A DNA stretch of 64,000 bases from Candidatus Pacearchaeota archaeon (GCA_041656875.1 JBBACR010000001.1:325386-389385), one strand, 5' to 3'. Shown: positions 2,588 to 52,366, counted from the first letter of the stretch. Notes: a model not told the origin generated them from the letters alone. A program made the numbers and translations.

Positions 2588-2869
2588 TTAAGCTTTTTCA
2601 AATCTCGATGAATTTAAAGAACGAATATCTTTTGAACTATCTTCAATTGCGTATACTCGTAAGTTACTTCCATCATATCCATCTGCAATAAAAATCTGTC
2701 CAATTGGGTATTTCTTAAATCCTGCAATTGCGGAACCTAACATTGTATGCTCACTTTTTTGGACTTCATTATATGCAGCATCTGTTAATTTTACTTTATC
2801 ACCTCTTTTAAAATTAGATGAATTTGATTCATTGATGAATTCTTCGATTGTAGGTATTCTTCTTTTCAT
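2588..2869 (-). CDS. RIPT-leader family protein (93 aa), start revised to internal Met
   Basis: ORF track 2588..2914; upstream gene stop at 2871; true start MKRRIPTIEEFINE matches the conserved leader. Confidence 0.55.
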   Translation of the reverse strand: MKRRIPTIEEFINESNSSNFKRGDKVKLTDAAYNEVQKSEHTMLGSAIAGFKKYPIGQIFIADGYDGSNLRVYAIEDSSKDIRSLNSSRFEKA

Positions 2870-2870
2870 A

Positions 2871-3152
2871 TTATTCGCCTGTAACGTCTGACCACGTGTA
2901 TATGTTATTTGCATTTTTCGTTATTGATAAAATGACAGTCTCATCTTTTTCAAGTTTTCTTTCAAGCCATTCGATAATTCCTTTGCCATTTGTTATGCTT
3001 GTAATTGTCGATTCTTCAACTTTTGGCGCAGGTGCTGTTTCAGCTTCCTCATCTGTTGTTATGAATGCATCAAACGTTTTGAATTTTTCTTCTTGATTTT
3101 CTTGTTCGTTTGGAACTTCTGAATTGATTAATTCTTTAAAATCTTTTATCAT
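2871..3152 (-). CDS. hypothetical acidic protein
   Basis: ORF track 93 aa, tightly packed co-directional array. Confidence 0.4.
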   Translation of the reverse strand: MIKDFKELINSEVPNEQENQEEKFKTFDAFITTDEEAETAPAPKVEESTITSITNGKGIIEWLERKLEKDETVILSITKNANNIYTWSDVTGE

Positions 3153-3159
3153 GATTACT

Positions 3160-3840
3160 TTATTTTGTTAAGCTTGCGTATAATGCAGCATAGTGTTCTG
3201 CTTTTTGTTTTATTTCAGCAATACGAGTTTTCATTCTGGCTTGGTCAATTTCTTGTACGCCATTGCTAATCCAATCTGTTGTTTTTGCCTTTGTTTTTGC
3301 AATTTCTTCTGTTGGCGCTTGCACAAATTCAACAGTTCCGCCATAACCCCAACCTTTATATGGGTCAGTGTATATAAATACTTCAAACCATTTATCTTTG
3401 AATGCTTCTGGCATTTTTTCATACATATAAGATTCGATATCATTCCATCCTATCCATTTGCCATTATCATATTCCAAATCAACACTTGTTCCTGCAATTC
3501 TATCAGTTGTAATAACTTTTATATCATTATTGCTATCTATATAAAATGTATATTTGCCATTAAATGAAGAAGGACCCCATTGTCTGTCTAGTGCTTTCGT
3601 GTAACTTTTCGATTGCAAAATTTCTGAAAACCATCCATGGCCTTTTGCTTCATTTGATACAAATTTTTTAATGATATCATATGTATCAGGACCAAATTTT
3701 ATAGGACTTAATCCTTTTAAAATTTTACTTAGATACTTTATAAGTGCATTATCGACATCGGTATTTCTTGCTTCATTTAATACATTAATTTTTTGATTTT
3801 CATTAATGTATTCTTCAATCGTTGGTATTCTTCTATTCAT
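3160..3840 (-). CDS. RIPT-leader family protein (226 aa)
   Basis: MNRRIPTIEEYINE leader; class B motif 8 nt upstream of ATG. Confidence 0.6.
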   Translation of the reverse strand: MNRRIPTIEEYINENQKINVLNEARNTDVDNALIKYLSKILKGLSPIKFGPDTYDIIKKFVSNEAKGHGWFSEILQSKSYTKALDRQWGPSSFNGKYTFYIDSNNDIKVITTDRIAGTSVDLEYDNGKWIGWNDIESYMYEKMPEAFKDKWFEVFIYTDPYKGWGYGGTVEFVQAPTEEIAKTKAKTTDWISNGVQEIDQARMKTRIAEIKQKAEHYAALYASLTK

Positions 3841-9632: not shown

Positions 9633-10445
9633 TTAAAATAATGTTACAGATTTTTCAACAAGTTTTTTTCCTTCAGTTATTTTTGCAAATTCTTTGATAA
9701 TTTTACGGAATTCTTCTGGAATTATTCGCAAAACGCGTTCTGCTAATTCATTAGGCAATTTTTCATAAAACACATATGCAAGGCCACAAGCAATTGCAGC
9801 CAATGTATCGGTATCTCCACCATGCATAATGCTTTCTCTAAGTACTTCGGTAAAATCATTTCCAGTAAAGAAACAATTGAATGCTTCATGAACACCTGTT
9901 ATCGAATGTAAAGAATTTTTACGTGTATCAACATCACCTGGTTTTTTGTATTCATAACCATATGTTGATTTCAACATTTTGTACAATTCAGATTTATCTT
10001 TGCAAGTTCGCGCCATGAATGTTACATGAGCAAGTTGCATTACAGCGTCAAGCGAATCTGTATGATTATGTGTGCATGATGATTGTTTTACAGCTTGTCT
10101 TAAAACTGTTGGCAAATCGTTGTAAAATAACGGAATTGATAACCCACGCATTGCTGAACCATTTCCATAGCTGTTGTACGCAGCTCTATCACCGGCAGTA
10201 TTTGCCCATTTTGTAAACATTCCGCCGTATCCCATTCTTGGGTATTTTCTAGCATATTTTTGAATCATCATATCAAATGGACGGTTTTTCAATAAAGCTT
10301 CAGAAACAGCCAATGTTAAAATTGTATCATCTGTAAAACGATTTGCCTTTGTTATAAATTTGAACTCTGGGCTGATATCAGTTTTCCATTCCTTTGTTGA
10401 CCCAACAACATCGCCGATTACAGCGCCAAGTAAAAAGTATTTCAT
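9633..10445 (-). CDS. ADP-ribosylglycohydrolase (ARH family)
   Basis: N-term LLGAVIGDVVGSTKEW and C-term GGDTDTLAAIACGLA match ARH metal-binding motifs. Confidence 0.7.
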   Translation of the reverse strand: MKYFLLGAVIGDVVGSTKEWKTDISPEFKFITKANRFTDDTILTLAVSEALLKNRPFDMMIQKYARKYPRMGYGGMFTKWANTAGDRAAYNSYGNGSAMRGLSIPLFYNDLPTVLRQAVKQSSCTHNHTDSLDAVMQLAHVTFMARTCKDKSELYKMLKSTYGYEYKKPGDVDTRKNSLHSITGVHEAFNCFFTGNDFTEVLRESIMHGGDTDTLAAIACGLAYVFYEKLPNELAERVLRIIPEEFRKIIKEFAKITEGKKLVEKSVTLF

Positions 10446-15589: not shown

Positions 15590-15829
15590 ATGGAAAGAAG
15601 AATACCAACAATTGAAGAATTTTCAGCAAAGCCAGAAGAAACTAATGAAGCTGTTGGAACTGTAGACTTACATTTCAAAGCAAAAATGTTCTGTCAAGAA
15701 GTTTTGAAATTAGGAACAAAAAATAACTTATTTGATACTTATATGAAAAGTCATCAAATAAATCCAGATGATTTAAGCGATTTCATGGTAGCAGTTATTG
15801 AAAACATTCAAACAAATTATTTAGTATAA
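15590..15829 (+). CDS. RIPT-leader family protein (79 aa)
   Basis: MERRIPTIEEF leader; class B motif immediately upstream; first gene of plus-strand array. Confidence 0.55.
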   Translation: MERRIPTIEEFSAKPEETNEAVGTVDLHFKAKMFCQEVLKLGTKNNLFDTYMKSHQINPDDLSDFMVAVIENIQTNYLV

Positions 15830-16137
15830 TGAAAAAAAGAATACCCACTTTAGATGAACACATTAATGAATCAAAATTGAATGAATTTTGCACTACTACT
15901 GTTTATAAATTCTCTGGCTCTGCTTCTCAATGGAATGAATTGCTTAAACTTTTAGATAAACTTGAGAATAAGAAAGAATTGGCATATGATTCCGAAGATT
16001 TACCGTATGGTGCACAATCATTTGCAGTATTCGATATTTTGCCAAAAAAACCTGAGACAGTTAATTGTCATATCATAGATTTAGAAACATTAATTCCAAA
16101 AGACTTAATGAAATTTATTTCACCAATATCAAAATAA
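15829..16137 (+). CDS. RIPT-leader family protein (102 aa)
   Basis: MKKRIPTLDEHINE leader; start overlaps previous stop (TAATG). Confidence 0.55.
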   Translation: MKKRIPTLDEHINESKLNEFCTTTVYKFSGSASQWNELLKLLDKLENKKELAYDSEDLPYGAQSFAVFDILPKKPETVNCHIIDLETLIPKDLMKFISPISK

Positions 16138-16145
16138 TAAGATAA

Positions 16146-17255
16146 ATGAAAAATAGAATACCTACGTTTGATGATTTTTTATTCGAAAGAACACCAGATA
16201 AAATTCCACATCCAAAACATAAATGGTTTGAAGTTAATCCAAAAGATTATGACGATTTGGAAGATGATTTTTATAAATTGATTCAAACTGCATATAAAGA
16301 TGTTCCTGGCGGTCACTTGAAAGTTCAAAAACCAGATGACGTATTTGATGCTGGATGGACTTATTGGGTTGCAATGGATAATGATAATAATCCCGATTTT
16401 AATGTTGTGAAAGGTTATAAAGTAACACCATACGGTTATAAATCAGCAGTTGCAGGTCATGATGTTACAAAGGTATCAAAAACTGATTATCTTACTAAAT
16501 TTGCTGAAGATATGAGCAAACCTGGTAAATACGCTGAGGTTTCTGAAAAACTAGCAGAAATTCTTATCAATAAATATCATGTTCATATTGTATCAAATCC
16601 CGATGCAATTAAAGCAGTACTTGGTAAAAGCGATGTTGTGTTTTATGGCAAAAATCCTGAGAATCCTTCAATGCCTGGTGATGGATGGTATACACGAAAA
16701 ATTGCAGGCGGCGTTCATGCAAAAATATTAGTAGGAAAACCTATTGTACAGGAATCTGTTACAGAAGGACTTGATAACGGTAAACCTACCGTTTTAGTTC
16801 TTCACGGATATGAATCATCAGTATATCCTCCAAGATTAAAAGTATTATCTGCAGATTATAATTTATTAACGCCTGAAATGGATTATGACCATAACCAAGG
16901 ATTGTTTGAAAAAACATACCAAACGTATAAAAATGCAAATATTGATTTAATAGTCGGTTCATCAATGGGCGGATACTTTGGATATTATTTAGCATCATTA
17001 CTTGATGTTCCTGCTTTATTATTCAATCCCGCGGTAATCGAAACAACATCAGGCATCAAAAAACAAGAAGTTCGAAAAGGCAAATATAATCCTGCAATTT
17101 ATGTTGTTTCAGGCAAAGATGATGATATCGTTATTTCATGGAAACTTAAACAATGGTTTAAGGAAAACGCAAGAAACTATGAATTTATTACTGAAAACAT
17201 GGGACATCGCCCTTCCGATGAAACTTATATAAAATATGTTAAAAAATATGTATAA
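16146..17255 (+). CDS. RIPT-leader protein with C-terminal alpha/beta hydrolase domain
   Basis: MKNRIPTFDDFLFE leader; LVLHGYESS ... VGSSMGG (GxSxG nucleophile elbow) ... D ... H. Confidence 0.6.
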   Translation: MKNRIPTFDDFLFERTPDKIPHPKHKWFEVNPKDYDDLEDDFYKLIQTAYKDVPGGHLKVQKPDDVFDAGWTYWVAMDNDNNPDFNVVKGYKVTPYGYKSAVAGHDVTKVSKTDYLTKFAEDMSKPGKYAEVSEKLAEILINKYHVHIVSNPDAIKAVLGKSDVVFYGKNPENPSMPGDGWYTRKIAGGVHAKILVGKPIVQESVTEGLDNGKPTVLVLHGYESSVYPPRLKVLSADYNLLTPEMDYDHNQGLFEKTYQTYKNANIDLIVGSSMGGYFGYYLASLLDVPALLFNPAVIETTSGIKKQEVRKGKYNPAIYVVSGKDDDIVISWKLKQWFKENARNYEFITENMGHRPSDETYIKYVKKYV

Positions 17256-17607
17256 AAGAATACCAACATTTGATGAACATGTAAATGAAGGCACATGGAA
17301 TAATGAAAAATATGGTTTCAGAATATCGAAATTTTTAGAACAGCATACAGGTAAAAACCTAACAGGCGAAATGAAAGTTCAAATTATTTTTAACGATTTT
17401 TTCAAAGCAAGTACTTATGAATATGCTAATAATTTATTATTGTGTTCAAGAATCGAAGGTTACATTAAATCGTATAAAATTCTTGAACATGATAGATTGA
17501 TAGGCAGTTACAGAAATATATTTATTGTAGATGTTGATGTAATTAAATGGTACGAATTTTTACGCAAACTAGATGATGGTCATTTAGATAACTTTAAAAT
17601 ATTATAA
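17248..17607 (+). CDS. RIPT-leader family protein, start revised to MYKRIPTFDEHVNE
   Basis: ORF track starts 17236; conserved leader begins at second Met. Confidence 0.5.
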   Translation: MYKRIPTFDEHVNEGTWNNEKYGFRISKFLEQHTGKNLTGEMKVQIIFNDFFKASTYEYANNLLLCSRIEGYIKSYKILEHDRLIGSYRNIFIVDVDVIKWYEFLRKLDDGHLDNFKIL

Positions 17608-17610
17608 GAA

Positions 17611-17883
17611 ATGAAAAAGAGAATACCAACATTTGATGAACATGTAAACGAAGGCATATTGCAAAGTTTTATTGATTTGTTCAAGAAAAAACCTGATGTA
17701 AGTACATGGACGCCACCAGAATTTAAAATTGAAGCAACATTAAAAAAGATTTTAACTGACGATGGCTGGACAAACTTAGGACGTGATGAAGAAGGCCGAC
17801 TAATCGGAAACAATACAAAGTACGGCGGTAATGGATTAGATGTTATCGAAACAATGCGTGATGAAAAAAAATTAAACTTCTAA
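17611..17883 (+). CDS. RIPT-leader family protein (90 aa)
   Basis: MKKRIPTFDEHVNE leader. Confidence 0.55.
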   Translation: MKKRIPTFDEHVNEGILQSFIDLFKKKPDVSTWTPPEFKIEATLKKILTDDGWTNLGRDEEGRLIGNNTKYGGNGLDVIETMRDEKKLNF

Positions 17884-17884
17884 T

Positions 17885-18658
17885 ATGAAAACCAGAATTC
17901 CATCTTTTGATGATTTCTTATTTGAATCTAATGATAGAATCATTACATTATATCATGGGACGGCTTCTGGGAAATTATCATCTATAAAGCTTAACGGACT
18001 TGATACTAATGCAGAAACAAATCAAAAAACGCATGGCTTTAATACAAGTAATCAAATTTCATTAAGCTTTAATTATTCTGATGCATATTATTATGGTTCA
18101 TTATTTGTTAAAACAAACGAACCAGTTACTGTTTTGATAATTAAACTTCCGTATTCGTATATAGCAGGAAAAGGGCTTTCGTTAAACGAAGTTCTTGTTA
18201 AACAAAATATATCATCAAAATACATAATAGGTGCATATAAAGACAAAGATATCGTAAAATTAGATAAATTGTCAACAAATGAAACATATGTAAATCCTGA
18301 TATGCTATCAACAAGTGATTTGCAACATTATAAGTCGCATTATAAAATTAACGAATCAATTGATGCCTTAGAAAAGATGGGGATCCAAGCAGATCCTGAC
18401 AAACCTTCAATATTCTTATATACGATATATCGTACGCCAAGTTCCGATGAAATTAAGGAATTTGAAAATTATCCGCAACTTACAGCTGATGAAATATTGA
18501 ACGGTTTTTGTTATACATGCATTGGCAGAGGAATTACGTCAAGTAGAAATATTGCATTAATAAAAGATAGCATAAATATGCTTATTGCTGCATACCCAGA
18601 TGATCCTCGATATACTGAAGCATTAAGAATAAGCGATGAATTAAAACCTAAATTTTAA
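17885..18658 (+). CDS. RIPT-leader protein with Tpt1/KptA- or PARP-like (H-Y-E class) ADP-ribosyltransferase-fold domain
   Basis: MKTRIPSFDDFLFE leader, then ITLYHGTASGKLSSIKLNGL (compare E. coli KptA FLYHGTASRFLDEIKKQGL, recalled from memory) and YSDAYYYGSLF (Y-x-Y segment); lacks the Tpt1 N-terminal R-H-R-R lobe. Confidence 0.4.
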   Translation: MKTRIPSFDDFLFESNDRIITLYHGTASGKLSSIKLNGLDTNAETNQKTHGFNTSNQISLSFNYSDAYYYGSLFVKTNEPVTVLIIKLPYSYIAGKGLSLNEVLVKQNISSKYIIGAYKDKDIVKLDKLSTNETYVNPDMLSTSDLQHYKSHYKINESIDALEKMGIQADPDKPSIFLYTIYRTPSSDEIKEFENYPQLTADEILNGFCYTCIGRGITSSRNIALIKDSINMLIAAYPDDPRYTEALRISDELKPKF

Positions 18659-18861
18659 AACATTACTTCATAAATTGTTTTACCTTTTTCTGTAATTTCC
18701 CATTCGTTTTTCTCATTGCATACAGCAAGTCCTAAATGAACCATTTTTTGCAATGCTAAAATTATATCTTCTTCAGAAATATTTTCAATAATCGGAAGCT
18801 CATGAAAGATTTTTTCTTTTATGAGCTTCGTGTATATTATGCTTACTTGTTTATCATTCAT
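18655..18861 (-). CDS. hypothetical small protein
   Basis: ORF track 68 aa; convergent overlap with 17885..18658. Confidence 0.35.
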   Translation of the reverse strand: MNDKQVSIIYTKLIKEKIFHELPIIENISEEDIILALQKMVHLGLAVCNEKNEWEITEKGKTIYEVMF

Positions 18862-19625
18862 ATTAATTGTCCTTTCTTATTAAATACCATGTATCTAAAT
18901 TTTATGCCCGATTTTAGTACAGCAGCCATTTTTAACGCATTTATATCTTCATTTTTTTGAAATGTCCATTCTGATTTAACTTCAATTATAGTATGCAAAG
19001 ACTTGATATAAATATCTGGCACATATAAATGCTTTTTTTCATTACACACATAAAAAATATTGCCAAGTTCTTTGCGTATAGCTTTTCCTCCTATTATTAT
19101 ATCTTCTTCATTATAAGATAACAGCAATAATAAAATTGCTTTATTTTCGTATCCTTGCGTTTTCACAACAGCGCCTGACGGCAATATGAATTTATGCCAT
19201 TTATATCGACCTCCGTAATTCAAAGCATCTGCCCTTTTTATTTTGTTCTCCTCTATACTATTGTATAATAATAATTTTTGTGATAAATTCTCTCGCCATT
19301 TTGCGTTATGTGATACAGCTTTCATAGATTCTGAAACGCGTGCACGAAGTTCATGAGTCCATCTATTTGGATCCTTAAGATGTATTTCCATTTTTTCTTT
19401 GTACATTGGATCTTCATATTTTTTTTTCATACTGCAATTTCGCGAACACGCAACTCTCCTATATGGCGTAAACATTTTACCGCATATCGGGCAAGCAATA
19501 TCTTGCAATTTATTTTTTTGTATTCTTGCTTTGCCAATGCAAGAACGGGAACAAAATTGTGCACTTTTTTTATTTGTTTTGAATTCTTTGTTACATACCG
19601 AACAATTTTTAATATATGTTGTCAT
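18858..19625 (-). CDS. putative homing endonuclease: N-terminal Zn ribbon plus C-terminal PD-(D/E)xK domain
   Basis: CSVCNKEF...CSRSC, CPICGK...CSRNC; C-term YVPDIYIKSLHTIIEVKSEWTF (PD...E-V-K); paralog of 38948..39850. Confidence 0.5.
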   Translation of the reverse strand: MTTYIKNCSVCNKEFKTNKKSAQFCSRSCIGKARIQKNKLQDIACPICGKMFTPYRRVACSRNCSMKKKYEDPMYKEKMEIHLKDPNRWTHELRARVSESMKAVSHNAKWRENLSQKLLLYNSIEENKIKRADALNYGGRYKWHKFILPSGAVVKTQGYENKAILLLLLSYNEEDIIIGGKAIRKELGNIFYVCNEKKHLYVPDIYIKSLHTIIEVKSEWTFQKNEDINALKMAAVLKSGIKFRYMVFNKKGQLI

Positions 19626-19673
19626 GATTTTTATTTATATATTAAAAGATACGCATTGTTATTTTGAAGTTAT

Positions 19674-21410
19674 TTAAAATCTTACATATACACATCTATC
19701 TAAAAAATCTTGAGGAAACATATGTCTATTCTGCGTAATTAGCCTGAAAAAATCGCTATCTAGAATATACGTTGTTGCGTAATCGTTTTCATTCCTAACT
19801 GAACGACCAACACCCTGTAAGACCGACAGTATTGTAATCCATGCGTACCAATCTTTATCTGTCTTCATTTTCGCATTTACGAATTTGTCCATGAGCGATG
19901 GGTAAGGAACTTTTGCAAATATTTGAAACCGGGACTTATCATTTCCTAAATCTAATCCTTCTAATAGACTGGGACCCATTAGAACTTTATTGTTTGCACT
20001 GCTAAAATCAAATAAAACATTTTTTTTATCTGAACTATTTATGTATGAAATAATTCTATCACTTTTTATGTTTTCATTCAAGTATACACTATTTGTGTAA
20101 CTTCCGGTGTGAATGATTCCATTCTCATTTTTGTGTTTTTCTAAAATTTCTGTTATTTTATTTGCAATTTTTGGCAAAGCAACTTCTTTATTTTTAAACG
20201 ACATGCTTACACCTTGATAAATTAATATTGGCGAACGGTCAAAATTGAATGTACTAGGTATTTTTCTATACTTTGCATTGTTTGCATTTATACTTTTTGC
20301 AAACAGCGTAGGTTCACCCATCGTTGCTGTCATCATGACAGCAAAGTTATTTTTGTCATGAAAATGTTTTTTCATGAGGTATTTTTCATTGATGCAATTA
20401 AACTGTATATTTGCACCGTTTTGGTTTTTAATCATTGCTCTAATATCAGTTGACGCAATAATTTGATTATAATCTTCAAATTTACAATGTAGATCTTTGC
20501 ATTCATCGCACAAGTTTAATCCTTTTCTCCATTCTGCTGGAACTGATTTGCCAGCATATTTTCTTCCTACGAATTTTTTTATTTCATCGGCGTGTTGAAC
20601 AAACGAATGAAGCATTTTCTCAAACATTCTGTTATGAATAAACAATTTTGCATTATCGTCTTCAGCAACAATTTTATTTATGATTTCTTTCAATTCATAT
20701 CCGCTATACGGAACTGCCATTGAATGTTCAGCAAGGAATCCTCGTAAACGTTCAAGCATAGGATATGTATTATCATTTACAATAGGACTAAAGTGTTTTT
20801 GTACAATGTTAACAACTTTATGCGCCTCATCGCATATAATAAAATCACGTTCATCAAATAACGCATGAGACGAATCCGTCATTTTTTCCAATACGTAATT
20901 CATTTGTATCAAATAATACGAATAGTTGAATATTGATGTTGGAGTAAAACTTGCGTAATCTCTTGCAAAATAATAAGGGCAGTCCTTATAACATGGTAGT
21001 TGTTTTGTTGCATTTGAATTTAAGTGCTTCATTTTACATTCACCAAGACTATGTTTTTCTTGGTTTTCTGTACAAAGATAATTATCAACACCTTTTACAC
21101 TTCCAAATCCTAAATGCAATTTCAATACGTCTTGTTCGTATTGGTCTTGTAATGCAAGATCTGATGATAGAATATATCCTTTTTTGCCGAATCTGTTTAA
21201 TACATATGAGGAGCATAATGCAATTAATGATTTACCGCTACCTGTTGGTGCGTCGATAAGATATATCTTTTTTTCTTCACCCATGCATGTTGCAACAACA
21301 TCAATAATTGCTTCTTTTTGACCTGTCCTGAACTCGAAATTTGTCCACCCATGATTTTTAACGAACATGTCAATATATTCGTTTATTTTATCTTCAAGTT
21401 CTTGATTCAT
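19674..21410 (-). CDS. DinG/XPD (Rad3)-family DEAH helicase with Fe-S Cys cluster
   Basis: Walker A IDAPTGSGKSL; motif II IICDEAHKV; four Cys CTEN..C..C..C between motifs I and II. Confidence 0.75.
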   Translation of the reverse strand: MNQELEDKINEYIDMFVKNHGWTNFEFRTGQKEAIIDVVATCMGEEKKIYLIDAPTGSGKSLIALCSSYVLNRFGKKGYILSSDLALQDQYEQDVLKLHLGFGSVKGVDNYLCTENQEKHSLGECKMKHLNSNATKQLPCYKDCPYYFARDYASFTPTSIFNYSYYLIQMNYVLEKMTDSSHALFDERDFIICDEAHKVVNIVQKHFSPIVNDNTYPMLERLRGFLAEHSMAVPYSGYELKEIINKIVAEDDNAKLFIHNRMFEKMLHSFVQHADEIKKFVGRKYAGKSVPAEWRKGLNLCDECKDLHCKFEDYNQIIASTDIRAMIKNQNGANIQFNCINEKYLMKKHFHDKNNFAVMMTATMGEPTLFAKSINANNAKYRKIPSTFNFDRSPILIYQGVSMSFKNKEVALPKIANKITEILEKHKNENGIIHTGSYTNSVYLNENIKSDRIISYINSSDKKNVLFDFSSANNKVLMGPSLLEGLDLGNDKSRFQIFAKVPYPSLMDKFVNAKMKTDKDWYAWITILSVLQGVGRSVRNENDYATTYILDSDFFRLITQNRHMFPQDFLDRCVYVRF

Positions 21411-21426
21411 TATTTATCTAATCTTT

Positions 21427-21455
21427 TTATGTAATATATAATTATATACATAAAG
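21427..21455. promoter_or_regulatory. near-palindromic class B element in divergent region (helicase <- -> 21471)
   Basis: tatgtaatatataattatatacataaag reads as class B motif on both strands. Confidence 0.4.
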
Positions 21456-21470
21456 TAAAAAAAGTTTATC

Positions 21471-21911
21471 ATGAATCAACGAATACCTACGTTTGACAAT
21501 TTCCTGTTTGAAGCAGGAATAAAATATGAACCTGGTTCGATTAGCGAACTATTAGCAGGACTGCGCGGTAACCAAGAGTTTTATGATTTTTGCAAAAAAC
21601 ATGGACATCCAAATCCACAAGCCTGGAATCCTATGGAATTTACGATGAGTTCTTGTACATTCGTTGCAAAATTTTTAGAGGAAAAAGGATTTGGTAAAGC
21701 ATTATCAAGTCACGGTCCATACGGCATGGCACCACATGCTTTTGTTTTGTATAACGGATTATATTATGATTATGAAGCAAGAGAAGGCGTTAAGAATGTT
21801 TATGACTTGCCAAACTTTCAAGATTTACGATACAATGTTAAAAAAGGTGATTCCTGGCCAAATTACAAAAAAGAAATAGTCAAAAACGTACAAAATTTTA
21901 ATTTTCAATAA
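21471..21911 (+). CDS. RIPT-leader family protein (146 aa)
   Basis: MNQRIPTFDNFLFE leader; near-palindromic class B element upstream. Confidence 0.55.
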   Translation: MNQRIPTFDNFLFEAGIKYEPGSISELLAGLRGNQEFYDFCKKHGHPNPQAWNPMEFTMSSCTFVAKFLEEKGFGKALSSHGPYGMAPHAFVLYNGLYYDYEAREGVKNVYDLPNFQDLRYNVKKGDSWPNYKKEIVKNVQNFNFQ

Positions 21912-22825
21912 TGAAGCTACGAATACCAAATTTTGATGATTTTATATTTGAATCTAATTATGAATGGATTCCAATGACCGTTGCATCTGCTAAAATTGTT
22001 GCTGATGGCATGATAAAATTGTTTGCGCCAAATAGTGATGAAATTGCAAAAAACAAAAAAATTGCCGAACTTGTATTAGCTGCGCTAGAAAAGCATATTG
22101 AACGTATGAAGTATTTCGATAAATTTCCCGACTTCAAGAAATTGATTGAGGATAACGTAAAACATATAATTGCAAATGATAAACGTCATGGCATCGAACC
22201 TGAAGACCCAAACATGGTTAAGGCATATGCAATGGAATATGCAATGGAAACAATTTACGAAAGAACAAAGGGCCAAGAATCACAAGAAGAAAAAGACAAG
22301 AAAACACAAGTTACATTTTTCAATAAAGTTTTTAATGAAGGCGCGGCATTACGCACAAAAGCAATTACAAATGCTGGTTTGAAATTTTACAAACAGAACT
22401 TGTTTGCATTTGAGGAAATAAACAGAAAATTACGAACAGATCATTCAAAAATGAGTGAGCATGATTGGTCAGTTGCAACTGATGTAGGAAATGCAATTGA
22501 CTTATTTAAAACATCAAAAGAAGTAACGGTTTTCCGTATTATTGATTCTGAAGATTTTCCATTTTCATTAAGCAAAGGAAAAAAGTTTACAGAAAAAGGA
22601 ATACTGTCAACATCATTTGACATTAATTATCTTTTAGAAAACAAAGAAAATTTTGAATCACCAGTTATATTGCAAATAGTAGTTCCGTCTGGCACTACAT
22701 ATTACAGATTTCCGAATGATTTTGAATCAGAAGTAGTTTTTGATTGTGATCATGAGATTATAATAACTGATAATTCATACGAATATTTAGACACACCAAT
22801 CATAAAATGCAAAATTATAAAGTAA
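21911..22825 (+). CDS. RIPT-leader protein with C-terminal R-S-E mono-ADP-ribosyltransferase domain (T4 Alt/Mod-like)
   Basis: MKLRIPNFDDFIFE leader; VTVFRII (Arg), GILSTSFD (STS), NDFESEVVF (ExE) with canonical spacing. Confidence 0.55.
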   Translation: MKLRIPNFDDFIFESNYEWIPMTVASAKIVADGMIKLFAPNSDEIAKNKKIAELVLAALEKHIERMKYFDKFPDFKKLIEDNVKHIIANDKRHGIEPEDPNMVKAYAMEYAMETIYERTKGQESQEEKDKKTQVTFFNKVFNEGAALRTKAITNAGLKFYKQNLFAFEEINRKLRTDHSKMSEHDWSVATDVGNAIDLFKTSKEVTVFRIIDSEDFPFSLSKGKKFTEKGILSTSFDINYLLENKENFESPVILQIVVPSGTTYYRFPNDFESEVVFDCDHEIIITDNSYEYLDTPIIKCKIIK

Positions 22826-22827
22826 CA

Positions 22828-23202
22828 ATGAATCAACGAATACCAAATTTTGATGATTTTGTTAATGAAGCAAAATCTGTTCCTAGAGAAAATACAGAAC
22901 GTGAAACTGTATTAGATTACATTATCAAAAACAAACAAGTCCGTTTAGAAAAGCTCAAGGAAATTAAAGCGCCTGAAATTATCATCACAGGAACTGAGAA
23001 CCAAATACATTTATTAAAATCAGGTCAATCAAAAATTAAAGGACTTGACATTTACGGTTCTAATATTTATAAAACGTTGGAATGGAGAAAAGGCAATGGT
23101 GGAGTTGATTTCATACAATTTGTAATGAATGATGATTCAGTTATAAATTATTTTCCAAATGCAAAATACGGAGCATTTTTCGCACCTAATACTAAAAAAT
23201 AA
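22828..23202 (+). CDS. RIPT-leader family protein, start revised to MNQRIPNFDDFVNE
   Basis: ORF track 22807 start; leader begins at third Met. Confidence 0.5.
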   Translation: MNQRIPNFDDFVNEAKSVPRENTERETVLDYIIKNKQVRLEKLKEIKAPEIIITGTENQIHLLKSGQSKIKGLDIYGSNIYKTLEWRKGNGGVDFIQFVMNDDSVINYFPNAKYGAFFAPNTKK

Positions 23203-23522
23203 TGGAAAGCTTATATATCATAACAGACGGAGAAAAATACAAAATAGGTTATAGCAAAGACGTGGCTAATCGTAAGAGACAACTACAGACAGCAAACGGA
23301 TCTTTACTGGATATTGTATTTGAATTTGAAACGGTTCATGGAATGAAATTAGAAAGATCCATTCAACGGTCAATGAAACATAAAAACATTATCGGCGAAT
23401 GGTTTGATTTAGAAAAAGAAGATATTGCAAAAATAAAAGAACTTTGTATTTTGCAAGAAAAAAACTTTAACATCATAAAGAAAAATGAAACAGAGAATTC
23501 CTACGTTAGAGGACTTTATTAA
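23202..23522 (+). CDS. T5orf172 (GIY-YIG-related) domain protein
   Basis: YKIGYSKDVANRKRQLQT ... IIGEWFDL matches T5orf172 KIG.T...RRL..L and GEWF signature. Confidence 0.65.
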   Translation: MESLYIITDGEKYKIGYSKDVANRKRQLQTANGSLLDIVFEFETVHGMKLERSIQRSMKHKNIIGEWFDLEKEDIAKIKELCILQEKNFNIIKKNETENSYVRGLY

Positions 23523-23940
23523 TGAATCGTCGAATGAAATTTTCACTAGTTCTGACATTATAGATTTGCAAAAAAATGGTGCAAGACCAGACGACACTTG
23601 GCAATCAATAAAATCATCGGCAAAATTTCAAAAAATAGATAATGTTAGTATTTCAAAAATTAATTGGTCAGAAAAAAATGTTGATATTTTAAAGAAACAA
23701 GAACGCAGATTAAACCGATTATTCGATGAAGATGATGGCACACAATACTATAAAGATGCCATTAAAAGAGAACAGTCAGAATTACAGCATATACAAAATC
23801 TTATTCAAATGGTAAAAAGCAATAAAAAATTAAATCCGATTGTTGTAGATTCAAATTATAGATTGCTTGATGGTTTTCATAGAATAGGTGCATATCAAAT
23901 TGCAGGTAAAAAAACTATTGACATATTTAAAGAAATTTGA
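23485..23940 (+). CDS. RIPT-leader protein with ParB-like nuclease domain
   Basis: MKQRIPTLEDFINE leader; C-term LLDGFHRIGAY (DGxHR ParB motif). Confidence 0.55.
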   Translation: MKQRIPTLEDFINESSNEIFTSSDIIDLQKNGARPDDTWQSIKSSAKFQKIDNVSISKINWSEKNVDILKKQERRLNRLFDEDDGTQYYKDAIKREQSELQHIQNLIQMVKSNKKLNPIVVDSNYRLLDGFHRIGAYQIAGKKTIDIFKEI

Positions 23941-23994
23941 TAATTTTTAAATTTATACTGCATGTGCCATTACAAAGAAAAATATACATACACA

Positions 23995-24741
23995 ATGAAA
24001 AACAGAATACCAGCATTTGATGACTTCATAGTTGAACGAGAATTTCCATTTACAGATACATCATTTGTTACACGGATTCTTACTAAATTAAAATCTCAAA
24101 TTTTAGAAAAAAATTTAGGAAACCTTGAAGTTGAAACAATTTTAAATAAAGCATTTAGAAGTTTTTTAGTTTCTTTTGAAAGTAACAGTGGACAATCTGC
24201 ATTTGATGATATGACTAGAGTCGGACTGATTCAATCACGAATTGACCAAGACGGCAACATAATTGTTGATTATGCAGATTATTTTTATGAAACATTTGAA
24301 GACGAAGAATTATATGATGAATTTGGAACAGTTCTTGCAAGAATTCTTGCGCATGAAAGAACGCATGCAGGCCAATTAGATAAAATACGAATGGGAAGAA
24401 ATTCTTATGACTTTTACAACATTTTAGGAAAAATAGGTAAAGACCCATCAAACCGTTTTAAATATTTGTCAAGCAAACAAGAAATGATGGCATTTGCGGT
24501 TGAATGCGTAGAAGAATTCAGAGGAATGGGATATTCCGATTCTGATATTTTACGTAAAATTAAAACACCGTTTAAAGACTATCAAGAATCCAATATTTTC
24601 TATTTATACATTGACTATTTCGATTATAGAGGTCATGTATTCGATAACGACGAAAAGGAAAGAAAAAAATGCAAAGACGTAATTGACGGATTCTTAAAAT
24701 ATATGTATCAATATATAACAAAACCGAAATCTTTAGAATAA
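23995..24741 (+). CDS. RIPT-leader protein with HExxH zinc-metallopeptidase motif
   Basis: Start revised to MKNRIPAFDDFIVE; LARILAHERTHAGQ = HExxH. Confidence 0.4.
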   Translation: MKNRIPAFDDFIVEREFPFTDTSFVTRILTKLKSQILEKNLGNLEVETILNKAFRSFLVSFESNSGQSAFDDMTRVGLIQSRIDQDGNIIVDYADYFYETFEDEELYDEFGTVLARILAHERTHAGQLDKIRMGRNSYDFYNILGKIGKDPSNRFKYLSSKQEMMAFAVECVEEFRGMGYSDSDILRKIKTPFKDYQESNIFYLYIDYFDYRGHVFDNDEKERKKCKDVIDGFLKYMYQYITKPKSLE

Positions 24742-25205
24742 TGCAATTTAAACAACTATTAAATATGAATGAAGCAAAACAAATTTGGAACAAAAAAGTG
24801 TTCCTAGGTGGCACATGTAATGAATCTAAATGGCGTGATGAATTAATCAAAAAACTTAAGATTGACTATTTCAATCCAGTTGTTCCAGATTGGACCGAAG
24901 AATGCTATCAAGAAGAATTAAGACAACGGGAATCATGCGATTTTTGTTTGTACGTTATTACACCAAAAATGACAGGCAGTTATTCAATTGCTGAAGTAGT
25001 TGACGATTCAAATAAACGTCCAGAAAAAACTGTTTTTTGTTTTGTTTCAACAGATGAAGATAAAGAATTCGATAAAGCACAAAACAAAAGTTTGGATAAA
25101 GTTGGCGTAATGGTTGCATCTAATGGCGGTACTTATTTGAAATCATTAGATGAAGTTGCAAACTTTTTAAACATGGAATATTACATAGAGAATAATGAAA
25201 AATAG
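24741..25205 (+). CDS. nucleoside 2-deoxyribosyltransferase-like Rossmann protein
   Basis: VFLGGTCNESKWRDELIKKL...YFNPV resembles NDT/YtoQ-like fold; weak. Confidence 0.3.
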   Translation: MQFKQLLNMNEAKQIWNKKVFLGGTCNESKWRDELIKKLKIDYFNPVVPDWTEECYQEELRQRESCDFCLYVITPKMTGSYSIAEVVDDSNKRPEKTVFCFVSTDEDKEFDKAQNKSLDKVGVMVASNGGTYLKSLDEVANFLNMEYYIENNEK

Positions 25206-26205
25206 AATACCTACATTTGAATCATTTGAATTTAATGATTGCACACAATTATTTGAATTATCGAATAATAGTACTTTATATCATCATTCAATGGCAAAAT
25301 TTAAAGTAGGTGATGTAATTACTTCACAGAAAAATGGTGATGGCGTTCATTGGCTTGCAAATGATCCAATGGAAATTGGATTAGAATTTTTCAGAAAAAA
25401 ACATTATCCTGATAGACCTTCACGTTTCGATTGCGTATATTCAAGCATAATCCCAAGAACGCGATTTTCAGACAAAGGATATTTATATGTAGTGCAACCA
25501 GTTGGAAGTCTTTTTATGACAGATTCAATGATTATTGATAGCTTAGGCGATGAATTTATGAGAGAACGAATGACCCCGTATTATGAAACATTAACTATTA
25601 ATGATTTCAAAAAAAATCCAGAGGAAGCTGAAAGAATTCTTTCTTATTATTCTGCAAAAAGATATTGGGATGGCGTTAAATCGCTGCCTAGGGAAAGATG
25701 GGGCGATATTGAAGTATTATCAAATTCCGCAATTGTGACACAGGTAATTGAAGATTCAGGAACAGTATTACGTCCAGGAATGGATGTTGTGGTTACGGAA
25801 GATAACATTATAGATGTGACAATGACTATTTATAATCAGCACCCGAAAGAAAATGATACTCAATTATTCGATAATGAACAAATTGCAACAATGTTAAGTT
25901 ATATTGAAAAACATATCATAAACGGCAAATTTGAACAGCAATCTTATAATAAAAATGTCTATGATATTCGCGGGTATTTAAGAAAAGATGCAAAACTTAA
26001 AACTACATTTATACGTACAAATTTAGCAAAAAATGTGCATACGTATGATACCGTAAAAGGAAAGTATAGTTTAATAACATTCGATTTATACATCGATGGC
26101 CATTTATTCAAACGTGCAAATGAAGCACCGCTTTTCAGACTTGAAACAGCAATGTATTTGAAAAATAAAGCTTATGATATTGGTATGTATCTAAAGAAAG
26201 TTTAG
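25195..26205 (+). CDS. RIPT-leader family protein (336 aa)
   Basis: MKNRIPTFESFEFN leader. Confidence 0.55.
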   Translation: MKNRIPTFESFEFNDCTQLFELSNNSTLYHHSMAKFKVGDVITSQKNGDGVHWLANDPMEIGLEFFRKKHYPDRPSRFDCVYSSIIPRTRFSDKGYLYVVQPVGSLFMTDSMIIDSLGDEFMRERMTPYYETLTINDFKKNPEEAERILSYYSAKRYWDGVKSLPRERWGDIEVLSNSAIVTQVIEDSGTVLRPGMDVVVTEDNIIDVTMTIYNQHPKENDTQLFDNEQIATMLSYIEKHIINGKFEQQSYNKNVYDIRGYLRKDAKLKTTFIRTNLAKNVHTYDTVKGKYSLITFDLYIDGHLFKRANEAPLFRLETAMYLKNKAYDIGMYLKKV

Positions 26206-45503: not shown

Positions 45504-45914
45504 TTATTCAAATTTATAAGATTTCAGTGTTTGAAATCTTTTTGTTAAATCGTCAATTTCTTCTGGAAAGCAAGGTCCTATACCTATGCATGTTATTGTC
45601 GGTTCAGTGAAAACTGTATAACCTGCATCTTTTATTATTGCAACAGGAATGTTTCTTGCTTTCACATCTTCTGCTAACTTTAATAATTTGTCAAGACTTT
45701 TGCATCCCAATATAATTTTAACAAATGGTCCATCTAACCAAAGTTGTAAAGCAGAACCTTCCTTTGTAATTAATGTTCGAACGTCGCCAGACTTTGTCAT
45801 TTGATTATACACAGGTGCTTCACTTGCATGCGATATTTGTGCACCTAATTTGCCCATTGGCATAACTAAATCGGTTCTTACAACAATAACTTGTTTTGGT
45901 AAATTTTGAGGCAT
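45504..45914 (-). CDS. peptidyl-tRNA hydrolase, PTH2 family
   Basis: QVIVVRTDLVMPMGKLGAQISHA ... DAGYTVFTEPTITCIGIGP aligns with PTH2 VVRxDL.MGKGK.AAQCSHA / DAGxT..T.LGIGP. Confidence 0.8.
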   Translation of the reverse strand: MPQNLPKQVIVVRTDLVMPMGKLGAQISHASEAPVYNQMTKSGDVRTLITKEGSALQLWLDGPFVKIILGCKSLDKLLKLAEDVKARNIPVAIIKDAGYTVFTEPTITCIGIGPCFPEEIDDLTKRFQTLKSYKFE

Positions 45915-45929
45915 ATTGCTTTTTATTTG

Positions 45930-45950
45930 TTTGATTTATATATACATAAC
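45930..45950 (-). promoter_or_regulatory. class B motif (longer spacer)
   Basis: gene-sense TTATGTATATATAAATCAAACAAATAAAAAGCA-ATG. Confidence 0.4.
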
Positions 45951-45956
45951 TATCCG

Positions 45957-47105
45957 TTAGTTTTCTACTATATGCAGTTCATGCGCTTCAATATTCAACG
46001 GCACTTCTAATTTTTTGCGCATTTTATCCATCACGCATAACGGAACTTGTTCTTTTTCTGTTCTGCTTAAATTTTGTTTTACACAATCAGCATAAGGTGT
46101 TGCAATAAAAATTATTTTTACATACGCCTTATACGAAGTGAACAATGAAATAAGTCCTTCTCTCATTTGTCTTGTTATGTTAGTTGCATTCCAAACAAAA
46201 TCAATTCCTTTTGCCATATATTCTTTGGCAGTTTTCTTTGCTTCTTGAATAACACGACCTTGTTCATCAGTCGGCTTTATTTTTAATCTTCTTCGTATTT
46301 CGTCTAAAGATATCACAGGTATTCCTGACATATGTTTCGATATGTAATAATCTTTACCCGAACCAGGCAAACCTACCATCATGCATACGGTTGATTTTGT
46401 ATCATCAAACGGACAATCTGAATGATGATGTGTTCTTTCAACAAGATACTTATATTTTGCAATTCCTGTTCCGAATTCGTATGCACCGTCAATAAGATCC
46501 AAATCAAAAGCTAATAATAAAAAGTAATCAATTGCTTCAAGTCTTTTATCAATGTCTGATGCAATTCTTCCTTTAAAATCACTTTTTGTCATGTAATAAA
46601 GATTGTCCATTCTGCAATCTTGTGACATTTTAATAATTGAACGTTCTTGTTCTTCTCTTGTTTTATCAATAAGCCATGTAGGTTTTCCATGATATAGAAT
46701 AAGATTGCAAATTTCGATACGATCCAAAATAGGCATCTTATCACCATTAATTATTGATACTTTAAGGTTCTCTAATAATTCCCATGCAATTTTTGCGCCT
46801 GTTGCTTCGTGTCCATGTGCTCTAATTTTGCCATCCTCTAATTTTGAGACTATCGGTTTTGCAATATCATGAAGTAACAATGCATAATTTATAATTGTTA
46901 TGTCATGCGCGCATAACGATAATTCTTCATCAATTCCGTCAAGTTCATTACAAATTTTTTCAAATTCGTCAAGAACCATTTTTGTATGTGTTAGCACATC
47001 GCCTTCACCGTGCCAGTCTGGATTTTGTTCGCATAATGACATTGCATTTAAGTATGGATGCAATTCTTTCCATTGCGGAACAACATAATCATAAAATTTA
47101 CTCAT
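45957..47105 (-). CDS. HD-Pnk: N-terminal HD phosphoesterase plus C-terminal P-loop 5'-OH polynucleotide kinase (end-healing enzyme)
   Basis: NPDWHGEGDVLTHT, LLLHDIAKP, HGHE (HD motifs); CMMVGLPGSGKDYY Walker A; architecture as described for Runella HD-Pnk. Confidence 0.65.
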   Translation of the reverse strand: MSKFYDYVVPQWKELHPYLNAMSLCEQNPDWHGEGDVLTHTKMVLDEFEKICNELDGIDEELSLCAHDITIINYALLLHDIAKPIVSKLEDGKIRAHGHEATGAKIAWELLENLKVSIINGDKMPILDRIEICNLILYHGKPTWLIDKTREEQERSIIKMSQDCRMDNLYYMTKSDFKGRIASDIDKRLEAIDYFLLLAFDLDLIDGAYEFGTGIAKYKYLVERTHHHSDCPFDDTKSTVCMMVGLPGSGKDYYISKHMSGIPVISLDEIRRRLKIKPTDEQGRVIQEAKKTAKEYMAKGIDFVWNATNITRQMREGLISLFTSYKAYVKIIFIATPYADCVKQNLSRTEKEQVPLCVMDKMRKKLEVPLNIEAHELHIVEN

Positions 47106-47108
47106 TTC

Positions 47109-48302
47109 TTATAATTTTAATAGTCCTTGTTCAATATGTCCCGAATATAATTCTCTAAGTTTATCGTGTCCGATATTCAATATTTCAGATTCAAGTTTCG
47201 CTCTCCTCCAATTTTTCGACCAATGTTCATCGGTTTTCACATGTTTTGCTCTTACATATTTGTAAACAGAATTGTAAAACATGTCATTTGGAAATTCTTC
47301 TTGTATTCTAGCAACCACGCCTTCTTTAGGTGATTCAAATATCATATCGTTCGATAAATGAGATGTGTGTGTCATCAAATCATTTATTATGTCTTCCATT
47401 GTTTGCGGCTGTTGAACACGGAATTTATTTTCAACTCGCCAGTTTGATGAATCAACTCTGAAAAGAATCGGAACAGTTACAAAATCAAACATTTTTGCCC
47501 AATATTCTGTTTCCTCCCACGATAAGAAAACATCATGTTTCATATTTCTTACACCAAATACGTAAAAGTGTTCCTGCAATCCAGAATAAATAATAGAATG
47601 CTCACCATACATATTTTCGCCACAAATTTCAAGGTCGAAATCTTTTAAATCATTTTTGATTGAATCCCATTTGGGTTTAAGCCATTGCGCCCATGGGTTT
47701 TTTGTTGGTGCTGTTCGTGATCTTGCAAATAAACCGTATTGTGAAATACTTGTGTTTTCGCCATCAAGTTTTTCTGTTATGATAACAGGTCTTTTGTAAA
47801 GAATATTTGTATTTTTTGCAATCCTATCATCTGATGTTGTACCAGGTGAAAATGGAAAATGATAAGTTCGAGGATACTTATCAACAATAGGATCATACGG
47901 TTTATCGAAATCTTTAAGACGAGATTGTATGATCTTTTGAACATTTGCATTGCGGAAGATATATCCTTTCAATCTTCGTCCATCTTTTAAAATTGGATTT
48001 CCCCATTTATCATAATCCATAACAAATTCGTTAAGTGATAAATCGGAAGGATATAATATGTTTTTTATTTTTGCGTGCGATCTTAAAAATTCGCAAGATA
48101 TTTCAGTTTCCTCTGCCAACATATGATGTTCAAAACACAATGAAACACCGTTATCTAAATAATAACCGCCGTCATCGAATAACGAACGGTCGATTATATG
48201 ATGTGCATCAACTGCAGGTTTTCCGCATATAACGCATTTATGATTATCTCGTTTGAATACAGATTCTTTGAATTCTGTTCTATTTAACAATGTCTGATTC
48301 AT
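47109..48302 (-). CDS. HNH endonuclease domain fused to ATP-dependent RNA ligase (covalent nucleotidyltransferase) domain
   Basis: CVICGK..DAHHIIDRSLF...NGVSLCFEHH (HNH); ITEKLDGENTSI (motif I KxDGxN), ICGENMY (III), KEGVVARI (IV), VRAKHVK (V). Confidence 0.6.
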   Translation of the reverse strand: MNQTLLNRTEFKESVFKRDNHKCVICGKPAVDAHHIIDRSLFDDGGYYLDNGVSLCFEHHMLAEETEISCEFLRSHAKIKNILYPSDLSLNEFVMDYDKWGNPILKDGRRLKGYIFRNANVQKIIQSRLKDFDKPYDPIVDKYPRTYHFPFSPGTTSDDRIAKNTNILYKRPVIITEKLDGENTSISQYGLFARSRTAPTKNPWAQWLKPKWDSIKNDLKDFDLEICGENMYGEHSIIYSGLQEHFYVFGVRNMKHDVFLSWEETEYWAKMFDFVTVPILFRVDSSNWRVENKFRVQQPQTMEDIINDLMTHTSHLSNDMIFESPKEGVVARIQEEFPNDMFYNSVYKYVRAKHVKTDEHWSKNWRRAKLESEILNIGHDKLRELYSGHIEQGLLKL

Positions 48303-48332
48303 ATATAATTTATTTTATATTATATACACAAA
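48303..48332 (-). promoter_or_regulatory. class B motif upstream of HNH-RNA ligase
   Basis: gene-sense TTTGTGTATATAATATAAAATAAATTATAT-ATG. Confidence 0.45.
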
Positions 48333-48351
48333 GTGTTCAAAGTTTATAAAT

Positions 48352-49268: not shown

Positions 49269-49279
49269 TTTTTGTTTGT

Positions 49280-49331
49280 TTAATTGTTAAAAATCAAATA
49301 TACAACATTAATGAAGCAATAGCAATAGATT
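49280..49331 (-). promoter_or_regulatory. class A promoter element (subtype 2: ttgttaaaatc...)
   Basis: same consensus. Confidence 0.55.
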
Positions 49332-49336
49332 ATGCA

Positions 49337-52364: not shown

Positions 52365-52366
52365 AA

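Follow-up and report, generated by a model that had tools for sequence, protein, structure and literature searches.

The window analysed here is a stretch of 64,000 nucleotides (GCA_041656875.1, JBBACR010000001.1:325386-389385) from a contig deposited under the name of Candidatus Pacearchaeota, which probably belongs to a huge phage. Two open reading frames (ORFs) on its plus strand, 17885-18658 and 21911-22825, encode predicted ADP-ribosyltransferases (ARTs), and both start with variants of a common 14-residue leader, as had been noticed in the original prediction, made from the sequence alone. The window also encodes an ADP-ribosylglycohydrolase (ARH, or ARG) and a Sir2 protein. All four proteins are found where the original prediction placed them, with the motifs it named. 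The span from 17885 to 22825 is not a single unit, a minus-strand block being inserted between the two plus-strand ART genes. Its features are as follows.

17885..17926, plus strand: leader MKTRIPSFDDFLFE of ORF 17885-18658, 14 residues, a putative capsid-targeting propeptide ending in L-F-E
17930..18334, plus strand: predicted minimal ART-fold domain (residues 16-150), of the H-Y-E type resembling the NAD+ lobe of Tpt1
17954-17956, 18074-18076 and 18188-18190, plus strand: codons of the invariant H24, Y64 and E102 (Y69 is nearly invariant)
18392..18655, plus strand: domain of about 85 residues (170-257) with the pattern PSIF..TIYRxP...GFxYTxIGRGI
18655-21410, minus strand: small ORF, DUF7487 zinc-finger endonuclease, Rad3-type helicase
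21911..21952, plus strand: leader MKLRIPNFDDFIFE of ORF 21911-22825, 14 residues
21953..22387, plus strand: N-terminal region (residues 15-159) without recognisable family
22388..22822, plus strand: predicted ADPrib_exo_Tox (C3/VIP2/Alt-type) ART domain
22535-22537, 22607-22615 and 22724-22732, plus strand: codons of R209, S233-T-S235 and E272-S-E274

ORF 21911-22825 encodes a protein of 304 residues, consisting of the leader, a putative helical region and the C3/VIP2/Alt-type ART domain. The R-S-E motifs reported earlier are indeed there, TVFR at residues 206-209, LSTSF at 232-236 and FESEV at 271-275, in register with those of known ARTs, and they did not arise by chance. The full-length protein, taken as a single sequence, yields no match in Pfam, PHROGs or the PDB (phmmer), its N-terminal region (residues 15-159) has no Pfam, PHROG or PDB match either, and a word-indexed homologue search returned only self matches for this ORF and ORF 17885-18658 alike. 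However, a tblastn search of 50,697 phage records matched residues 165-287 to the C-terminal domain of MuF-ART fusions in five Microbacterium phage records (best E-value 3e-6). The best match, gp6 of phage Alakazam, is annotated as an ART-MuF fusion and itself matches PF03496 at 4e-13; the BLASTP alignment with it (6e-13, 32% identity over 133 residues) places F-R on H-R, STS on STS and ESE on ERE, and the upstream helix FEEINRKLR on YESINGVLR. When the protein is aligned with three phage ART domains, F208-R209, S233-T234-S235 and E272-S-E274 do not vary. The isolated domain (residues 160-304) scores 23.6 bits against PF03496 (E-value 3.8e-5), the gathering cut-off being 23.4.

The profile of these four sequences retrieved from the PDB Listeria Lmo0066 (8za7_B, 1.6e-9), whose R, STS and ExE motifs align with those of our protein, and, weakly, Certhrax (0.03). 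The profile also aligns with residues 417-506 of T4 Alt (hhalign, E-value 1.3e-4), whereas BLASTP of the ORF against Alt is not significant. Judging from these alignments, the domain is an R-S-E ART of the C3/VIP2/Alt type, homologous to the ARTs of PF03496. The cholera-toxin type, named earlier in one breath with the T4 Alt type, is rejected, as the profile and PDB matches place the domain with C3, VIP2 and Alt; the Alt half of that assignment stands. In the C3/VIP2/Alt clade, E-x-E as the last motif goes with arginine specificity. Because the last motif here is E-x-E, the sequence predicts arginine modification of a host protein.

ORF 17885-18658 encodes 257 residues. The segment that had drawn attention, LYHGTASGKLSSIKLNGL, is identical in 12 of 18 positions to residues 103-120 of E. 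coli KptA, LYHGTASRFLDEIKKQGL, and a tyrosine-rich stretch, NYSDAYYYGSLF, does occupy residues 63-74. Taken alone, an 18-residue similarity of this kind proves little. The full-length protein has no match in Pfam or PHROGs, and the single sequence has none in the PDB (phmmer). An exhaustive HMMER search of 1.84 billion representatives of 50%-identity clusters returned 152 matches, which divide the protein in two. Residues 16-150 match nine short proteins, and in the resulting alignment of ten sequences H24, T26, S28, G38, L39, H50, G51, Y64, A67, S72, F74 and E102 are invariant (ORF numbering). Against the PDB, the ten-sequence profile finds ART-clade structures only, namely DarT1 (1.3e-4), Tpt1 (3e-3) and many PARP1 and PARP2 chains (0.1-1). 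Thus profile searches, which might have led to unrelated folds, took both domains to ART-clade profiles and structures. Of the ten family members, five match the Pfam PARP model (best 9.6e-5) and two match PTS_2-RNA.

AlphaFold2 with the family alignment gave a model with a predicted local distance difference test score (pLDDT) of 88.6 and a predicted template modelling score (pTM) of 0.85, compared with a pLDDT of 34 from the single sequence. In the model, E102 is the first residue of strand five, the strand on which ARTs carry the catalytic glutamate. The HGT...GL motif and the fold of the NAD+ lobe of Tpt1 are both present, and the histidine of the first strand (HG[ST]), typical of this kind of ART fold, is the invariant H24. 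When the family was aligned by hhalign with a PARP1 sequence entered by hand, YHGT fell on WHGS (H862) and AYYY on the SANY/Y907 region. A Foldseek comparison with viral models retrieved many similar small ART folds in large phages, mostly unannotated, several of them in Bacillus phage G. The ART family itself forms eight clusters in a set of 5.8 billion proteins, none of them named, and is known from metagenomes only.

On the evidence of the alignment and the model, this is a small, undescribed family of the ART fold, closest to the NAD+ lobe of Tpt1, to DarT and to PARP, and these relatives suggest a nucleic acid or a protein as the target. Tpt1 requires an N-terminal RNA lobe bearing three of its four essential residues (PMC6333775). 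The protein is not Tpt1/KptA, because in the ten-sequence alignment the fold begins directly after the leader and no arginine is conserved before the second strand; both the RNA lobe and the Arg-His-Arg-Arg tetrad are absent. Hence, of the suggestion of a Tpt1/PARP-like H-Y-E protein, the fold near Tpt1, DarT and PARP survives and an identity with Tpt1/KptA proper does not.

The same data bear on whether the domain is a transferase at all. It might be a module derived from Tpt1, or a non-catalytic one binding NAD+ or ADP-ribose, which serves RNA repair or acts as a sponge for defence signals derived from ADP-ribose. Tpt1 is among the best neighbours both in structure and in sequence, the canonical tyrosine or histidine of the second position is not conserved, and an RNA-repair cluster and a Sir2 gene lie in the window. 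But the RNA lobe with its three of four essential Tpt1 residues is missing, as is a conserved arginine before the second strand; the invariant glutamate at the putative catalytic position of ARTs is foreign to Tpt1; and the gene, which bears the leader, is 27 kb away from the repair cluster. We regard a mere binding or repair module as very improbable.

The C-terminal domain of the same protein accounts for most of the 152 HMMER matches. Its fuller consensus is PSIF..TIYRLPT.EEL...GFxYTIIGRGI. It has no match in Pfam and, by profile search, none in the PDB, and it was found in none of the 50,697 phage records. Often it makes up a protein of about 100 residues behind a leader resembling the capsid-targeting sequence (CTS) of T4, for example MKTYTEFLNE or MKHVKLFESFLNE. 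On a related 4-kb contig, a leader protein at the same position beside the helicase combines this domain with a different N-terminal part, which indicates domain shuffling. CTS-like leaders, such as MKTFRQLLE and MKYIPSFAEFINE, are likewise seen on homologues of the ART domain; on a 320-kb contig, the gene of one leader-tagged homologue has a Peptidase_S77 gene at a distance of 5 kb, and the protease encoded there matches T4 gp21 at 1.3e-10.

The leader in the window has the consensus M-x-x-R-I-P-x-[FLI]-[DE]-[DE]-[FHY]-[ILV]-x-E, in both ARTs taking the form M-x-x-R-I-P-x-F-D-D-F-[LI]-F-E. It opens 16 ORFs, twelve of them in a plus-strand cassette at 15.6-26.2 kb, a pair at 2.6-3.8 kb and another pair at 51.7-52.9 kb.

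15590..18658, plus strand: left half of the cassette, six leader ORFs starting at 15590, 15829, 16146 (alpha/beta-hydrolase-like), 17248, 17611 and 17885
21471..26205, plus strand: right half of the cassette, leader ORFs starting at 21471, 21911, 22828, 23485 (ParB_N-like), 23995 and 25195
Starts at 23202 (T5orf172/MUG113) and 24741 (Nuc_deoxyri_tr2), plus strand: untagged ORFs amid the right half
2588..3840, minus strand: two leader ORFs, 2588-2869 and 3160-3840
51723..52939, minus strand: two leader ORFs, 51723-52364 and 52367-52939

In the six-frame translation of the window the motif is confined to N-termini, with no internal occurrence, and a degenerate DNA pattern of the leader has 12 matches in the window compared with none in each of 100 shuffles. 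The codons of the arginine (AGA/CGA), isoleucine (ATA/ATT) and proline (CCA/CCT/CCC) vary synonymously; since they do so at invariant residues, selection acts on the peptide. The CTS of T4 is MKTYQEFIAE (PMC8442874), and T4 gp21 cuts after L/I-X-E (PMC9026906). The last seven residues of the leaders (FDDFLFE, LDEYINE) share the pattern of the CTS end, and 14 of the 16 leaders end in [ILV]-x-E. One leader has aspartate as its last residue; in T4, aspartate at the cleavage position permits targeting and blocks processing (PMC9026906). The T-even internal proteins are varied cargo sharing just the conserved CTS (PMC3012670). The leader thus has the makings of a CTS, being a short N-terminal propeptide on varied cargo with an L/I-X-E protease site at its end, and the analogy with T4 Alt drawn in the original prediction gains from this T4 form and from the gp21 cleavage motif.

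In about 20 other metagenomic phage loci, several of them from contigs of 130-220 kb, the same leader stands at the head of unrelated ORFs arranged in tandem, as it does in one IMG/VR phage, sampled as contigs of 58.9 kb and 155.6 kb with identical ORFs. A scan of IMG/VR for related loci found nothing, and profile models of both ART domains, of the C-terminal domain of ORF 17885-18658 and of the S77 protease had no matches in 40 metagenomic leader loci. In 50 kb taken from the nearest sequenced relative, LR756500, R-I-P leaders are absent.

A motif, [AG]TATATAAAATAAA, lies just 5' of the start codons of tagged as well as untagged genes, with 24 matches at up to two mismatches versus 12.3 expected. 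It is likely to be a phage promoter element, class unspecified. Examples are given below.

15565-15578, plus strand: promoter-like motif
41630-41643, minus strand: promoter-like motif
52949-52962, minus strand: promoter-like motif
13096, 35427 and 57286 (minus strand): promoter-like motifs

Three members of the cassette deserve a separate mention. The leader ORF 25195-26205 (plus strand) weakly matches DUF2441, which we take to be ART-related, with an E-value of 1.3e-3, below the threshold, and has no match in the PDB. The ParB_N-like leader ORF 23485-23940 (plus strand) shows a weak match to the Thoeris inhibitor Tad3 (0.012, below the threshold). The untagged ORF 24741-25205 (plus strand), inside the cassette, encodes a nucleoside 2-deoxyribosyltransferase-like protein of the type found in NAD/ADP-ribose networks, and its N-terminus, MQFKQLLNMNE, is similar to the CTS-like leaders of other phages.

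The ARH lies outside the cassette.

9633..10445, minus strand: ADP-ribosylglycohydrolase (ARH/ARG), no leader, metal-site motifs intact

Its identification, already made by eye, is secure: it matches PF03747 at 6.9e-29 (101.8 bits, cut-off 26.2) and phrog_6572 at 7.8e-35, and all the motifs, GDVVGS, FTDDT, GNGSAMR and GGDTDT, are present. The nearest NCBIfam models, DraG (3.6e-13) and Tri1 (8.4e-8), are both arginine-specific. In the PDB it finds ARH3 (9e-9), DraG (2e-5) and Lmo0067 (6e-5), the last of these matches being weak and partial, with no single stretch passing. The ARH-like Lmo0067 is the crystallographic partner of Lmo0066 (PDB 8za7, chains A and B). A writer-eraser link between the ART of ORF 21911-22825 and this ARH is conceivable by analogy, because the nearest solved relative of the former, Lmo0066, was co-crystallised with Lmo0067.

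From the computed folds, families, motifs and leader, and from the occurrence of the leader in other phages, we infer packaging, cleavage and injection, and with them the activity, the targets and any coupling to the ARH. By analogy with T4 Alt, both ARTs would be packaged and injected together with the DNA, a reading to which we give a probability of about 0.6. The leader would direct a large number of unrelated proteins to the head during its assembly, a prohead protease of the T4 gp21 type would cut it off behind the glutamate, and ejection of the DNA would bring the cargo into the cell. Among the 16 tagged proteins, two would be NAD+-dependent ADP-ribosyltransferases, and that of ORF 21911-22825 may modify arginine in a host protein as soon as infection begins. 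T4 Alt modifies RNA polymerase. The ARH, which has no leader, would find its substrates, ADP-ribosyl-protein adducts, within the cell, and might limit self-damage by freshly synthesised ART. Of the ARTs of phages, about 44% are found in contexts suggesting head packaging (PMC9503650).

Several observations weigh against this reading. Within the 64-kb window there is no prohead protease, capsid or portal gene, and the cassette is situated amid genes of replication and nucleotide metabolism, not in a head module. As the promoter-like motif also stands 5' of untagged genes, it allows no inference of late timing for the leader genes. The membership of ORF 21911-22825 in PF03496 is borderline, the full-length protein missing the model. 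For ORF 17885-18658, the AlphaFold2 model was built on ten sequences only, and the equivalent of PARP1 Tyr896 is serine or phenylalanine in the family (again with the hand-entered PARP1 sequence), so that activity is not assured. The scores of the ARH to DraG and Tri1 are far under the model cut-offs, and a distance of 7 to 11 kb separates its gene, which is on the other strand, from those of the ARTs.

Some of these facts would suit a different account, in which the ARTs are ordinary intracellular enzymes of early or middle infection, like ModA and ModB of T4, and the N-terminus is a family-specific tag with a role other than packaging, such as regulated turnover, localisation or that of a conserved translation-initiation region. 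The window has no structural or protease genes, the cassette has genes of DNA metabolism as neighbours, tagged and untagged genes share their upstream motif, and the 50-kb sample of LR756500 contains no leader. We nevertheless consider it unlikely, as the leader is kept as a peptide through synonymous changes, the gp21 cleavage motif ends 14 of the 16 copies, unrelated cargos in many phages bear it, and homologues of the ART domain have CTS-like leaders, one of them on a contig that encodes an S77 protease.

The ARH raises another alternative, namely that it forms with the R-S-E ART a toxin-immunity pair, like DraT/DraG, Tre1/Tri1 or Lmo0066/Lmo0067, functioning in superinfection exclusion or abortive infection and not in host take-over. 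Lmo0066, the closest solved homologue of the ART, is complexed with the ARH-like Lmo0067, which matches the ARH of the window, and pairs of ART and ARG occur in some Aeromonas phages (PMC9503650). Known pairs are adjacent, however, whereas the two genes here are 11.5 kb apart on opposite strands; the ARH best matches ARH3 and DraG, its match to Lmo0067 being weak and partial (6e-5); and the ART has a leader while the ARH has none. It is thus highly unlikely that the two genes serve as such a pair.

Packaging and injection of both ARTs, the reading we prefer, can be taken further, at the price of becoming quite unlikely in its extended form. ORF 17885-18658, with its minimal Tpt1/DarT-like fold, invariant H, Y and E and undescribed TIYRxP...GRG module, might then found a new family of capsid-delivered ARTs that ADP-ribosylate the ends or bases of host DNA or RNA, or the phage's own DNA, on entry, and the R-I-P leader might be a general address for dozens of effectors in huge phages of Bacteroidota.

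The Sir2 protein belongs to a different neighbourhood.

55107..55811, minus strand: CobB-like Sir2, no leader, no cysteines (zinc ligands lost, length of the segment kept)
45504..49678, minus strand: RNA-repair-type cluster of PTH2, HD plus P-loop kinase, RNA ligase, one further ORF and cREC (49337-49678)

It is a clear sirtuin, matching PF02146 at 2.7e-37 (128.9 bits, cut-off 24), phrog_2162 at 7.3e-51, NF001753 at 8.3e-55 and E. coli CobB (1s5p) at 1.9e-32. As had been noted, the catalytic motifs GAGIS, TQNVD, HIHGE, FFGE and GTS are present, and the four-cysteine zinc module is missing: the whole protein has no cysteine. Its lack of cysteines is not a peculiarity; it is a trait of the clade. 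Homologues occur in 1018 phage records, and none of the four relatives checked, from two huge phages, an Acinetobacter phage and a Vibrio T4-like phage, retains the Cys4 site, two having no cysteine there and two having one.

The RNA-repair cluster is situated downstream of the Sir2 gene, on the same strand, 5.4 kb away. Iyer et al. 2022 described this type of neighbourhood and predicted that the main clade of phage sirtuins removes RNA 2'-phosphates in tRNA repair (PMC9503650). Since the neighbourhood agrees with this prediction, a role in RNA repair fits better than NAD depletion, and by analogy the Sir2 is most likely an associate of the RNA-repair genes close by, not of the ARTs. The original prediction had combined writers, eraser and NAD-consuming enzymes into one kit, an idea that the analysis bears out only in part. 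The enzymes do occur in one genome, but they are scattered over 46 kb on both strands, and apart from the Lmo0066/Lmo0067 parallel no link of the ARH or the Sir2 to the ARTs was seen; the vicinity of the repair genes speaks against counting the Sir2 in a kit related to NAD depletion, and the analysis produced no direct evidence for the suggested anti-defence role.

The contig from which the window was taken has 425,361 bp, is deposited as a metagenome-assembled genome of Candidatus Pacearchaeota, and encodes both ART proteins at 100% identity. The G+C content of the window is 31%; tRNA genes are absent from it, and it contains phage-type genes, such as those for homing endonucleases, ThyX, RNA ligase and the Rad3-type helicase. 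In the uncultured 462-kb phage LR756500 are the best matches of the helicase and the Sir2 (43% and 53% identity, respectively), and the next matches of the helicase are in jumbo phages of Chryseobacterium and Tenacibaculum, followed by Lak phages. The archaeal label is rejected, the gene content and best matches being those of a huge phage; the contig is probably a mis-binned relative of LR756500. Its host phylum is probably Bacteroidota, because one protein encoded in the window combines BACON repeats and a sorting domain for type IX secretion. Its gene and others away from the cassette are listed below.

1064-1471, minus strand: SLOG/YAcAr protein, a domain of the type found in NAD/ADP-ribose networks
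7341-9539, minus strand: secreted protein of 732 residues with BspA-type leucine-rich repeats, several BACON and viral BACON repeats and a type IX secretion C-terminal sorting domain
30867-32486, minus strand: protein of 539 residues with PPDK_N and PEP-utilizer mobile domains, similar to PEP (phosphoenolpyruvate) synthase or rifampin phosphotransferase
39840-42500, minus strand: fragment of an IMP dehydrogenase/GMP reductase-like gene running into a Hint (intein) domain, then a NUMOD3 homing-endonuclease-like ORF; it looks like a metabolic gene split by an intein

Injected enzymes are at work before the expression of any phage gene, and so settle how infection goes in its first minutes. Should the leader be a packaging address, it would be a readable label for the whole injected arsenal of the lineage, 16 such genes being present here, and two NAD+-using transferases would be among the first-line weapons against a host phylum in which phage take-over has barely been studied. 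The H/Y/E ART family and the C-terminal domain, both outside Pfam and sequenced phage isolates, are candidates for a new substrate specificity.

Among known systems, the R-S-E protein can be compared with T4 Alt, with which it shares the motif set R / S-T-S / E-x-E and the profile alignment. Alt is delivered together with the DNA after gp21 has processed its terminal propeptides (PMC9026906), and ORF 21911-22825 has a propeptide-like leader with the same cleavage motif. Yet it has 304 residues compared with 682 in Alt, the similarity exists at the profile level only, and its leader is of the CTS type of internal proteins, whereas Alt has its own N-terminal propeptide of seven residues and a C-terminal one. 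The closest detectable sequence relatives of its ART domain are the MuF-ART fusions of temperate and Microbacterium phages, such as Alakazam gp6, which are head-associated cargo (PMC9503650); these are delivered by covalent fusion to the MuF head protein, in whose place our protein has a leader of 14 residues.

The leader itself is best compared with the IPI, IPII and IPIII internal proteins of T4, where a short N-terminal leader ending in [LI]-x-E is likewise attached to unrelated cargo encoded in variable gene arrays (PMC3012670, PMC9026906). Our leader is longer (14 residues versus 10) and has the R-I-P core, which is not found in T4; the genome is that of a 425-kb phage, probably of Bacteroidota, not of a T-even phage; and the cargo includes enzymes of 250 to 370 residues.

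ORF 17885-18658 differs from Tpt1/KptA in lacking the N-terminal RNA lobe and the Arg-His-Arg-Arg tetrad, and in that its family has an invariant glutamate at the putative ART catalytic position and an additional conserved HG[FYW] loop. With DarT and PARP it has in common the profile matches (DarT1 at 1.3e-4, PARP1 and PARP2 weakly) and the position of H24 on H862 of the hand-entered PARP1 sequence; unlike these, the protein itself passes no Pfam model, and its domain is far smaller. The Sir2 of the window shares with the phage CobB-like sirtuins (phrog_2162) the sequence family, the loss of the zinc cysteines and the neighbourhood of RNA ligase, kinase and cREC, although it is 5.4 kb from the cluster, not adjacent to it; it is a putative member of the clade for which RNA repair was predicted.

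According to Iyer et al. 2022, ARTs are the commonest NAD+-ADP-ribose domains of DNA viruses, and about 5% of jumbo phages have ARG domains (PMC9503650). Packaged phage ARTs, ARH proteins of jumbo phages and sirtuins beside RNA-repair genes are already known, and an NAD kit is a known theme. Known packaged ARTs use MuF fusion or the propeptides of Alt. What is new here is the leader of the internal-protein type on ARTs of a huge phage outside the T-even group, and the small H/Y/E ART family together with its C-terminal partner domain.

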